64,000 nucleotides of DNA, taken from positions 2,304,001-2,368,000 of the forward strand of contig CAVQMM010000001.1 in NCBI GenBank assembly GCA_963713615.1. The letters are read 5' to 3'. Origin of the DNA: an uncultured Chlamydiae bacterium. Lineage in GTDB: Bacteria; Chlamydiota; Chlamydiia; Chlamydiales; JAJFMA01. The notes beneath the pieces are model-generated. The model saw nothing but the letters and a program-made list of their open reading frames with translations, made no database searches and was not told where the DNA came from. Positions 29,293 through 32,109 of this stretch are shown piece by piece; the stretch's first letter is position 1; each line of letters opens with the position of its first letter. A program made the position numbers and the translations under genes.

Positions 29293-30196
29293 TTGGAGTG
29301 CGGTCGCTTGCGACACTTGCGACCGCTTTGGGTTCCTTGCGACGGTCGTGTGCAACGGCATCACTATAATTCCCTAAGGGTAAAATAGTTAGTACATGCA
29401 GCCTTCGACGAATCCATACAATGCCTTTAGCATTGCCGTCCCAAGGAACGAAAAGCGGTCGCAAGCGACCGCACTCCAAAGCGCTGCGCGCCGAGATACG
29501 ATTGTGAAGTCCTAAGTCATTGAGATATAAGCTCAAAAGACCTGTTAGGTTGAGGCCTATGTGGCATCGCCATGGTATATACCAGGAAAGGATTTAGCAG
29601 TCTGAAAGACTGCGATAAAAAGCATGCATAAATGGTTTATGCAAACCAGCGTCTTGTAGCAGTCCTTCAGACTGCGAAATCCTATCCTGGCGTATACCAG
29701 GGCGATGCCCTGGCCTGTTGCAATTTCGACCCTTCGGGCCTGGGAAGGGGTAAAAATCTGTGTCTCCAGACCGAATAGTGCCATACCATCTGAGTCCTCT
29801 AGAGTCGTCTTTCCTAGCTTATAGGACTTCTGAAATGCTTTCAAAAGGACATAAAAGTCTCAAAGGACTTTTACAAATTTGTCTCCTAAGTCCTTTAGAG
29901 GTAATTGCAGAACTCCGATTTTCCAAATTCAATTCCTTGAATCTCACGCTGGCAAAGGGAAAGAAGCCATTCCCTTCCTAGGCCCGAAGGGTCAATATTG
30001 CAACAGGCCATGGCATCGCCATGGTATATACCAGGAAGAGATTCAGCAGTCTGAAAGACTGCGATAAAAGGCATGCATAAATGGTTTATGCAAACCAGCG
30101 TCTTGTAGCAGTCCTTCAGACTGCGAAATCCTATCCTGGCGTATACCAGGGCGATGCCCTGGCCTGTTGCAATTTCGACCCTTCTACCATAGGATT

Positions 30197-30420
30197 TTGC
30201 AAACGATTATCGACGGTAATAGGAAAAGACAAAAAACATTTCTCTAAGGTATCATTTTGGCCGACGAAGGTGTGGCCGTGTGCCCTTAGCGAATGTTTGT
30301 TCGCCTGGCCCGATATGCCGCCTTCGTCGTTTGCATCATCCAATAATTCCGTTCGGGATGGTGCCAATCTTCTGATTGTGGCTCTGTAAGTAGAAGTGGA
30401 ATTTGGGTGAAATTTAACGC
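30197..30420 (+). ncRNA. Predicted IS110 bridge RNA (boundaries approximate)
   Basis: Two stem-closed internal loops. Guides GCCCTT (30282-87) and GGCCCGA (30307-13) match the target; CGGGATG (30354-60) and GTAGA (30390-94) match the circle junction. Confidence 0.8.
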
Positions 30421-30447
30421 TCACAAACACTTAACAGGGCATTTATC

Positions 30448-31644
30448 ATGCAAAATCAGTCCGAACTTCGTATTTGTCTAGATATCGGTAGCGTTCGACA
30501 CTATGTAGCCATAGGCTTGTCCACAGGAGAACGCATCGATGGATTTTATCTAAACCACACTTCTGAAGACATTGAGCAGTTTTTTGAGAAAATTGAGAAG
30601 CTTAGAATTTCCTATAACATGCCTGTTGTCATGGCTATGGAGGGGTTTAATGGCTATGCTAGACCCATCGATAGATATGCTCTTGATCACGGATATTCTT
30701 TGTATAGTGTCAACAACATGAAATTGGCTAGATTTAAGGAAGTTTTTCCTGGTCCAGCCAAAACAGATCCAATTGACGCTTGGGCTATTTTTAGCTTGTT
30801 TCAAGTTCAAGAGACCTTACCGTTGGCAAAAAATATTCTGCAGAAAGTAGAGCCTCCACCGGTATGCAACGAGCAACTTAAACATATTTCAAGGCGTCGT
30901 AGAGAGTTGGTAAAAGAAAAGACAAGAATCATAAATCGACTTCAAGGGGATCTACAGGCTGTTTGCCCCGGTCTACTGTCTATTACAAAAAATCCAGCAA
31001 ATCTTTGGTTTCTACGATTTCTTGCTTCGAAGGAAGACATGACCATGTTGCTTCGAATGCAAAAAAGAAGCCTGTTGCAAATCAAGGGCGTTGGAGAGGT
31101 TTATGCAGAGGAAATTCAGAAATGGCAAAAGACGGCTAAGTTCTCTTCAAAGGTTGAGTGGATAGGAAAATTAATAGTACGAGATGTCAGAAGGCTACTC
31201 GAGATGCTAGATGAAATAGCGCAGTTGGAGGTATTGATAGAGGGTTTGATCCCACAATCCAAGATAGCATCTCGGATTGAATCTATTCCTGGATATGGTT
31301 CCATTTGTGCCGCAGAACTCGCTGGAGAGATTGGTAGTATCGATCGGTTTAAGTCGGAAGCTAGTCTAGCGCTCTACTTGGGAATAGGAATTCTGAACAA
31401 GAGTTCTGGCCAATATGAGGGGTCTCGATCGCCTCGAAATATTAACTGGAGGGGAAAGGGAGCTATGATGACCGGAGCTGCTCGACATATACAACTATGT
31501 GATGAGGCTGCACAGTACTACAAGAAGAAGAGAGCAGAGGGAAAAAAACATAACCAAGCAGTACGAGCATTTGCCCGTCATATGATAAGAGTAATATGGT
31601 CGATACTCATACATGACAGGGATTACCGTCAGAAGGAAGACTGA
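30448..31644 (+). CDS. IS110-family recombinase (DEDD RuvC-like + Tnp20 domain)
   Basis: CLDIG, AMEG, KTDPIDA; SIPGYG...GEIGSIDRFKS...SSG. Confidence 0.93.
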   Translation: MQNQSELRICLDIGSVRHYVAIGLSTGERIDGFYLNHTSEDIEQFFEKIEKLRISYNMPVVMAMEGFNGYARPIDRYALDHGYSLYSVNNMKLARFKEVFPGPAKTDPIDAWAIFSLFQVQETLPLAKNILQKVEPPPVCNEQLKHISRRRRELVKEKTRIINRLQGDLQAVCPGLLSITKNPANLWFLRFLASKEDMTMLLRMQKRSLLQIKGVGEVYAEEIQKWQKTAKFSSKVEWIGKLIVRDVRRLLEMLDEIAQLEVLIEGLIPQSKIASRIESIPGYGSICAAELAGEIGSIDRFKSEASLALYLGIGILNKSSGQYEGSRSPRNINWRGKGAMMTGAARHIQLCDEAAQYYKKKRAEGKKHNQAVRAFARHMIRVIWSILIHDRDYRQKED

Positions 31645-32109
31645 GTTAGTTTAGCAAACGGGCTTTGTTCTGTTTGGCCTGAATGAACAAGGTCAGCAAA
31701 TTCGGCGATGTTAGCTGAGCAGAAAAGGAGCACGGCTACTCTGCTTCGGCAACCCCATAGGAGTTGTATACAACCTTCCTAAGTAAATTCACCGTGTCCC
31801 TTCGCAGTTGAAAGGAGCACGGCTACTCTACTTCGGCTCTATAAATTTAGCAAAATTAGAAAATAATTAAAAGTTTCAAAACCGAAGGAATTGGCATCGA
31901 AAAATCGCCTGAAAGCTACGAAAAATCTTGAAAAATTCTAGCGGGATGTCGGGCCTGGGAAGGGGTAAAAATCTGTGTCTCCAGACCGAATAGTGCCATA
32001 CCATCTGAGTCCTCTAGAGTCGTCTTTCCTAGCTTATAGGACTTCTGAAATGCTTTCAAAAGGACATAAAAATCTCAAAGGACTTTTACAAATTTGTCTC
32101 CTAAGTCCT

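Follow-up and report, generated by a model that had tools for sequence, protein, structure and literature searches.

The window analysed here is a stretch of 64,000 nucleotides from an uncultured Chlamydiae bacterium (GenBank assembly GCA_963713615.1, contig CAVQMM010000001.1, positions 2,304,001 to 2,368,000). Positions 30185-31950 are occupied by an IS110 element of 1,766 bp (one core included), which contains one open reading frame (ORF) of 398 codons and interrupts a palindromic repeat resembling repetitive extragenic palindromes (REP). Judged by sequence comparison, this is an intact, recently spreading element that likely moves as a bridge-RNA recombinase naturally retargeted to one repeat motif; we estimate the probability of this reading at about 85%. 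Features are on the plus strand unless indicated otherwise.

Organization and insertion sites of the element

The left target arm CGACCCT, whose last base is a T, covers target positions 1-7 and was located at 30176-30182; at 30183-30184 it is followed by TC, the left core copy (positions 8-9). The element starts with the right donor arm TACCA (30185-30190), where TACCAT is also the predicted -10 box of a promoter of the circular form. The left sub-terminal inverted repeat (30190-30202) matches the right one (31928-31940) at 11 of 13 positions; the latter includes the predicted -35 box TTGAAA and has one A more than in homologues. The element further contains the region of the predicted bridge RNA (30197-30412), the recombinase gene (30448-31644) and a long right end (31645-31927) with two 27-nt direct repeats (31724-31750 and 31811-31837). 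The left donor arm CGGGATG (31942-31948) has G at position 7, whereas the arms of homologues end in GT. The right copy of the core and the right target arm GGGCC occupy 31949-31955. The motifs listed in a first-pass annotation of this DNA were all found exactly where it had placed them: TACCAT (30185), CGACGAAGG (30262), GCCCTT (30282), GCGAA (30289), TTCGC (30300), CCTGGCCCGA (30304), CCTTCGTCG (30321-30329), CGGGATG (30354), CAATC (30365), GATTG (30374), GTAGA (30390) and TTGAAA (31928). The 398-codon ORF and an empty insertion site at 29728-29740 were confirmed as well.

The host genome (3.97 Mb in three contigs) contains nine copies of the element, seven whole and two interrupted by other insertions. 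The whole copies differ from each other by at most one base. Genome-wide, all nine are inserted at CCCT-TC-GGGC, with CCCT preceding the core in every case; copies at unrelated sites, which the first-pass annotation had named as evidence that would speak against it, were not among them. A short core is common to the target and both element ends in all nine copies, and a larger duplication is absent. Among contigs assembled from a public sequencing run (X3), one had the element inside a rarer variant of the repeat and a second joined the flanks across 1766 skipped bases with two letters shared. The empty joint probably represents another, empty copy of the repeat rather than this one.

The interrupted copy at G000:C1:1751220-1754079 of the host genome carries a 2,858-bp element (four copies, 9-bp duplication), which we take from its gene set to be IS66-like, and the one at G000:C1:3548261-3551525 carries a 3,263-bp element (seven copies, 8-bp duplication), presumably IS21-like. 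Three further, distant IS110-family matches (L179, L189 and L190) were found in the same genome, one of them with an internal stop.

The recombinase and its relatives

The predicted enzyme matches the Pfam families DEDD_Tnp_IS110 and Transposase_20 as well as the NCBIfam model NF033542 (173.7 bits, cut-off 140), and has the two parts that characterize the IS110 family, an N-terminal DEDD RuvC domain and a C-terminal Tnp domain with a conserved serine. The candidate catalytic residues D12, E65, D110 and S320 were invariant in 36 aligned proteins, and the fifth, D107, was nearly so. An AlphaFold2 model (pLDDT 87) gave the ISCro4 and IS621 synaptic complexes as top fold matches (E ~1e-10, 16-17% identity), while a phmmer search of the PDB with the sequence found no relatives.

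The nearest proteins are 52-64% identical. No close relative was detected in 40 related genomes (two weak, distant matches), and one was detected in a set of 400 genomes of the phylum; the element therefore likely entered the host lineage laterally. Plasmid-borne homologues reached 25-29% identity at most, and two weakly matching loci were found in viral contigs. The chlamydial nature of the host, proposed from the sequence at the outset, agrees with two matches, one to Hc1 that exceeds the cut-off and a weak, OmcB-like one that stays under it.

Comparative analyses drew on 255 genomic and 438 metagenomic stretches, of which the best 80 from each source were used, giving about 160 homologous loci (47-60% identical). 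An RNA region could be parsed in 140 of the 161 loci and yielded 101 distinct guide sets. In a quick tree the element nests in a clade of 14 rows (SH-aLRT 99). Among its closest proteins (P0002-P0014) DNA was covered for the one at L013, and no intermediate state was seen in this sample.

The predicted bridge RNA

The RNA is predicted to span 30197-30412, its start being placed from the promoter, and to contain a target-binding loop (30262-30329, outer stem and an inner hairpin at 30289-30304) and a donor-binding loop (30336-30410, likewise with outer stem and inner hairpin). The segment 30258-30412 folded with a z-score of -3.54, and none of 200 shuffled sequences folded equally well. The longer segment 30197-30447 gave a z-score of -2.3, with the outer stem of the first loop open in its minimum free energy structure. 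This lowest-energy structure allows pairing between the 5' leader (30198-30216) and the target loop's 3' strand (30324-30335), possibly a switch or a folding artefact.

The stems were evaluated in 65 of 92 alignable homologous RNAs, with a two-loop structure obtained by RNAalifold and then trimmed by hand. Two-sided changes were observed at 21 of the 29 pairs, and 95.8% of the cells were paired compared with 37-53% when slid. A two-loop RNA with covarying stems in the left end is a feature of IS621-type bridge systems, and folding and covariation were among the checks that the first-pass annotation had proposed for its two-loop RNA. Together with the guides described below, the stems bear out its assignment to the IS621 bridge-RNA architecture. 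An Rfam scan gave nothing on the predicted RNA and weak hairpin matches in the repeat only.

Guides, targets and donors

All four putative guides lie upstream of the gene. The left target guide is GUGCCCUUA (30280-30288); the right target guide, GGCCCGA (30307-30313), matches target positions 8-14 at 7/7. The left donor guide CGGGAUG (30354-30360) matches donor positions 1-7 at 7/7, and the right donor guide GUAGA (30390-30394) pairs with TCTAC, positions 8-12. Both donor guides are thus as originally described. The right target guide, previously given as a 9/10 match, was narrowed to the seven nucleotides above. GCCCTT, originally taken as the left target guide, is present, but the guide at 30280-30288 matches the common target only at five of nine positions plus one G-T wobble. 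It fits positions 2-8 of the CTG variant of the repeat and positions 4-8, with the wobble, of the CGA variant; the right target guide fits CGA sites at 7/7 and CTG sites with one wobble. The four matches did not occur in this order within the left end in any of 200,000 shuffles, a crude test in which letter pairs were shuffled and the motifs had been picked after being seen.

Covariation between guides and DNA was tested across the homologues. In permutations that disregard kinship, the right target guide had 255 matches to the flank of its own locus over positions 10-14, against 178.7 ± 7.4 in permuted sets (72 guide sets), and the left target guide at positions 1-7 in 341 against 285.7 ± 6.5 (69 sets); neither score was reached in 10,000 permutations each. 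When disjoint nearest-neighbour pairs were compared, the own match of the right target guide was better at 23 of 27 positions and the swapped match at 3, whereas for the left target guide the corresponding numbers under this control of kinship were 21 and 12 of 36. The right donor guide and donor position 12 combined as G/C in 78, A/T in 11 and A/C in one of 90 guide sets. The left donor guide was nearly invariant. Covariation with the DNA thus appears strong for the right target and right donor guides and weaker for the left target guide.

These data also bear on the idea that the enzyme recognizes the REP hairpin by its shape, the RNA matches being secondary. The target does lie in and beside hairpins, and a stem-loop at the target aids ISPpu10 (10.64898/2026.03.19.712850). 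Nevertheless, shape recognition is very improbable given that the guides follow differing targets and donors across homologues, and pairing is still required in ISPpu10 (same source).

The TC core

The TC core noted in the first-pass annotation is borne out by the nine copies and by the homologues. Empty sites of homologues had the single-TC form 21 times and the TTC form never (five of five homologue genomes), and at the level of loci 13 had the single-T form versus one. Of the recognizable right ends, 142 of 145 read ATG-T-TC; since the empty sites carry a single TC, the homologue donors are GGGATGT-TC-TAC. With TC numbered 8-9, matches to the right target guide fell from 45/72 at position 14 to 13/72 at position 15. 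The last two bases of the left target guide, UC, match the two bases of the core in 67 and 62 of 69 sets, and a 1-nt linker follows. The single TC of the empty sites and the end of the guide matches after position 14 argue for C at position 9 throughout the clade, a position at which T is almost invariant in IS621 relatives (PMC11208158). The CT core and near-invariant T9 of the IS621/ISCro4 subgroup are accordingly absent, TC being found across the clade. The core variants tested there were CT, GT, AT and TT only (PMC11208158, PMC11208160). No report of an IS110 TC core was found in the literature, nor any mention of a non-CT core among the papers listed; figures (including that of the cores of six elements, Fig. 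6d of Durrant 2024) and supplements could hold a TC core.

The register could be shifted, so that T would occupy position 9, as it does in IS621, with the cut placed after T and the shared C at position 10; the base before T would then be an unmatched core base handled as part of the handshake (a one-base core). The cut within TC cannot be placed from junction sequences, and the near-invariance of T9 in IS621 relatives (PMC11208158) would suit such an arrangement. We regard it as improbable, for numbering TC as 8-9 gives the 14-bp geometry of IS621, the terminal UC of the left guide matches both core bases, and the related proposal of a GT core in the homologues, with a one-base match in this element, was ruled out by the empty sites and the 17-nt promoter spacer. 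As a cause of C9, residue N68 (three residues after the catalytic E, like G63 of IS621, a correspondence set by motif and not by structure overlay) was rejected: ten homologues with G at this place still have TC.

Exchange at position 7 and the handshake bases

The usual target of the clade is GGGG-TC-AGG, with a donor ending in GGGATGT-TC; the target of this element is ACCCT-TC-GGGCC. Target position 7 was G in 131 of 132 left ends, the sole exception being the T of this element, and donor position 7 was T in 143 of 145 right ends and is G here. Both handshake dinucleotides had been overlooked in the first-pass annotation, which described all parts of the system as readable. After exchange the first of them, UA in the target loop (30314-30315), is predicted to pair with donor G7 (wobble) and T6; for the second, AG in the donor loop (30395-30396), the predicted partners are target T7 and C6. 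The donor-loop base and target position 7 were C/G in 87, U/G in two and A/T in one (this element) of 90 guide sets; the target-loop base and donor position 7 were A/T in 83, U/G in one (this element) and A/A in one of 85. Wobbles included, the handshake base can pair with the non-cognate position 7 in 90/90 and 84/85 sets, respectively.

The donor of this element has lost one T, which brings the inverted repeat one base closer to the core, and one extra A behind the -35 box offsets the loss so that the spacer remains 17. The only element with T at target position 7 is also the only one in which both handshake bases are changed and a compensating A is found in the promoter spacer. The six other members of the 14-row clade with available DNA all show the common state, and the nesting of the element among such homologues suggests that its own state is likely derived.

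Cognate handshake pairing blocks strand exchange and non-cognate pairing promotes it (PMC11208158, PMC13626964), and the activity of IS621 dropped sharply when donor T7 stood opposite a donor-loop A (PMC11208158). By this rule the ancestral target-loop A would clash with target T7, just as the ancestral donor T7 would with the new donor-loop A. Both clashes would be removed by the changes seen here, which would leave three Watson-Crick pairs and one wobble after exchange, compared with one wobble before. No such swap was encountered in the literature on handshakes and natural reprogramming, judging by titles and the beginnings of abstracts.

The RNA may guide the element and the donor T may nonetheless have been lost by neutral drift, unforced by the handshake rule. 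The swap is a single evolutionary event and is for this reason beyond statistical testing, and at locus L086 a single-copy donor with A7 occurs next to an unchanged handshake A, an uncompensated change. Drift is, however, an unlikely explanation in view of the retention of T7 in all but two right ends and the coincidence, in one element, of target T7 with both handshake changes and the spacer A. L086 is a verrucomicrobial homologue whose right flank is the same as that of the target in the window.

Element ends and possible transcripts

When the ends of the element are joined they read TTGAAA-17 nt-TACCAT, as first proposed, and the 17-nt spacer is found in 138 of 145 right ends as well as in this element. 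The combination of sub-terminal inverted repeats with an upstream RNA, also recognized earlier, was likewise confirmed. In 57 homologues the repeats matched on average at 7.6 of 13 positions (431 matches against 397.6 ± 5.6 when shuffled). The right end is 306 nt long, versus a median of 35 in homologues, and folds with a z-score of -1.57. Outside the element, its direct repeats had no match in the genome, in loci L013-L172 or in viral contigs. A promoter scan of the linear locus gave four sites, with 4.1 expected.

Parts of the window were present in 20 public runs, and four RNA runs yielded shallow contigs over the left end, the gene and the right end. RNA contigs of two studies end at 31825 and 31827, which is a weak hint of a transcript. 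A circle junction was found neither among 172 loci nor in the assembled contigs of eight runs (four RNA, four DNA); contigs drop rare forms, so that a missing joint is no evidence of absence.

The target repeat

The interrupted repeat extends over 30011-30184 and resumes at 31949-32112. An empty copy with its flank (29562-29897), which contains the empty target at 29728-29740, is 98-99% identical to the DNA on both sides of the element; two further empty targets are on the minus strand (29981-29993 and 27320-27332). Repeat and flank are locally duplicated with a spacing of 449 bp and 98-99% similarity, and the element occupies the second copy. Tandem arrays (about 473 bp) of the repeat occur elsewhere in the genome as well.

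Unoccupied CCCTTCGGGC was found 281 times in the genome (about 5 expected): 258 copies of the CGA variant, which are dispersed, 14 of the CTG variant and nine others. Of the 273 11-mers that the guides could read, 268 have the 5' context of the repeat and four of the other five are visibly variants of it. All but one of the 14 CTG copies, together with an occupied one, are in an array directly behind a gene for a Y1 transposase (G000:C1:3243412). At this locus (L175, G000:C1:3243412-3248900) the transposase gene is followed by repeats in alternating orientation, one of which holds a copy of the element. The locus is likely the source of the repeat family, and the position of the array next to a Y1 transposase gene suggests a RAYT/REP-like origin of the target repeat, although the Y1 protein, with a score of 22.4, stays below the cut-off of REP_Tyr_transpos (80); it scored 57.6 with the IS200 model (cut-off 55). 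The repeat was not detected in any of 40 related genomes, of which many are fragmented. The first-pass description of a chlamydial palindromic repeat stands as to its palindromic character, but chlamydiae at large do not share the repeat.

Nearby, an IS1634-family transposase gene (27596-29233; NCBIfam, 290 bits) lies between copies of palindromic repeats and is flanked by nested inverted repeats of a second family (27069-27500 and 29273-29575). Positions 23704-27045 code for a low-complexity protein of 1,113 amino acids without a Pfam match.

Discussion

If the element works like IS621, a sigma70 promoter would arise where its ends are joined and would give a two-loop RNA of about 215 nt. The target loop would read [G/A]CCCT-TC-GGGC[C/T], two G-T wobbles admitting both variants of the repeat, and the donor loop CGGGATG-TC-TAC. 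At positions 8-9, the TC core, the DEDD/serine enzyme would then exchange the top strands. A shift to a target with T7 would have locked the ancestral handshake; changes of the two handshake bases and the loss of T7 from the donor would have followed, with the added A holding the promoter spacer at 17. Pairing that is richer after than before exchange (three Watson-Crick pairs and a wobble as opposed to a single wobble) would favour insertion.

The same guides could serve another route than the two-strand Holliday-junction cycle, namely copy-out of a single-strand circle, excision by the donor loop only, or direct transfer of the top strand. Such routes were reported for CazIS110 and IS621 (10.1101/2025.10.25.684509; 10.64898/2026.08.31.748434), all nine junction pairs of the element are of the top-strand type, and its copy number has grown; the structures of IS621, on the other hand, show both strands cut (PMC11208158). 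We consider a route of this kind a serious possibility, though not the favoured one, and it is compatible with a retargeted bridge-RNA recombinase.

Several observations weigh against the proposed reading or parts of it. The permutation tests take no account of kinship, and once it is controlled the covariation of the left target guide is weak. This guide also has no match at position 9. The left donor guide is unchanged despite the base lost from the donor, and pairs one position off from its homologues. An alternative fold of the RNA opens the first loop. The RNA contigs are patchy (depth 2-13) and possibly derive from DNA, and the end-to-end joint of a circle was not seen in the contigs. 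To these must be added the uncompensated donor of L086 and the origin of the swap in one event.

The bridge architecture has been published (Durrant 2024, PMC11208160; Hiraizumi 2024, PMC11208158). Like IS621 and ISCro4 (IS622), the element combines RuvC-DEDD and serine Tnp domains in the same fold (PMC11208160, PMC11208158, PMC13626964, 10.1101/2025.05.14.653916), and it shares with them a predicted RNA of two loops at the left end, the order of the four guides, a predicted junction promoter, the handshake dinucleotides, a REP-like target and a left target guide that includes a G-T wobble. It differs from them in the TC instead of CT core, in its enzyme (398 amino acids, about 16% identity) and in its imperfect sub-terminal repeats of 8-13 bp compared with 2-3 bp. 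A 7-nt right target guide and a nearly full post-exchange handshake, natural here, were obtained in IS621 only after engineering (PMC11208158). Sub-terminal inverted repeats of 7-17 bp are a feature of the IS1111 group and are present, whereas the downstream guide RNA of that group is not. On sequence grounds we would place the element among the IS110 bridge systems, outside the CT-core IS621 subgroup and, by the position of its RNA, not with the IS1111 type. Upstream RNAs with inverted repeats, and two long ends, are among the listed exceptions (PMC11187229).

ISPa11 and ISPpu10 similarly insert under the direction of RNA at one site of a multicopy palindromic repeat (PMC11187229; 10.64898/2026.03.19.712850), but the RNA of ISPa11 is downstream (PMC11187229) and ISPpu10 has a CT core (10.64898/2026.03.19.712850). 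As in RAYT/REP(IN) systems (PMC5581495), a repeat array adjoins a Y1 transposase gene, although here repeats are seen on one side only. Protein 111c4e57a8d4a3f780 in Supplementary Table 1 of Durrant 2024, from an unnamed IS110 clade without an ISfinder name, has the motifs AMEGYNG and NVNNLKLARFK in common with the enzyme, so that the clade is already in the published tree; the parts of that paper covered here describe no RNA, core or target for it. The 86 models covering 32,190 bridge RNAs (10.64898/2026.10.21.760802) may well include the clade. Natural reprogramming has also been reported (PMC11187229). Within its clade the element stands apart by the swap at position 7, the new target and the long right end, and new compared with published work, which already includes the type of system, is the reciprocal swap with matching handshake bases.

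We lean, by a narrow margin, towards a wider interpretation in which a widespread, uncharacterized clade with TC crossover reads C where IS621 needs T, and this member represents a complete natural reprogramming, forced by the handshake, with an RNA already tuned for efficient insertion in one direction. If this is true, the TC-core clade would be orthogonal to the present tools and reach sites that these cannot, and the handshake rule would have forced reciprocal changes in the target, the RNA and the element's own end. Bridge recombinases are under development for large DNA edits, and the characterized ones have a preference for CT (or GT) cores. An enzyme with a TC core and only 16% identity to them would widen the range of addressable sites and might run alongside the others without cross-talk. 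The swap at position 7 lends evolutionary support to a rule that has so far rested mainly on the biochemistry of IS621 and on pooled covariation, and the element as a whole is an example of an insertion sequence that adopted a repeat expanded in one chlamydial lineage.

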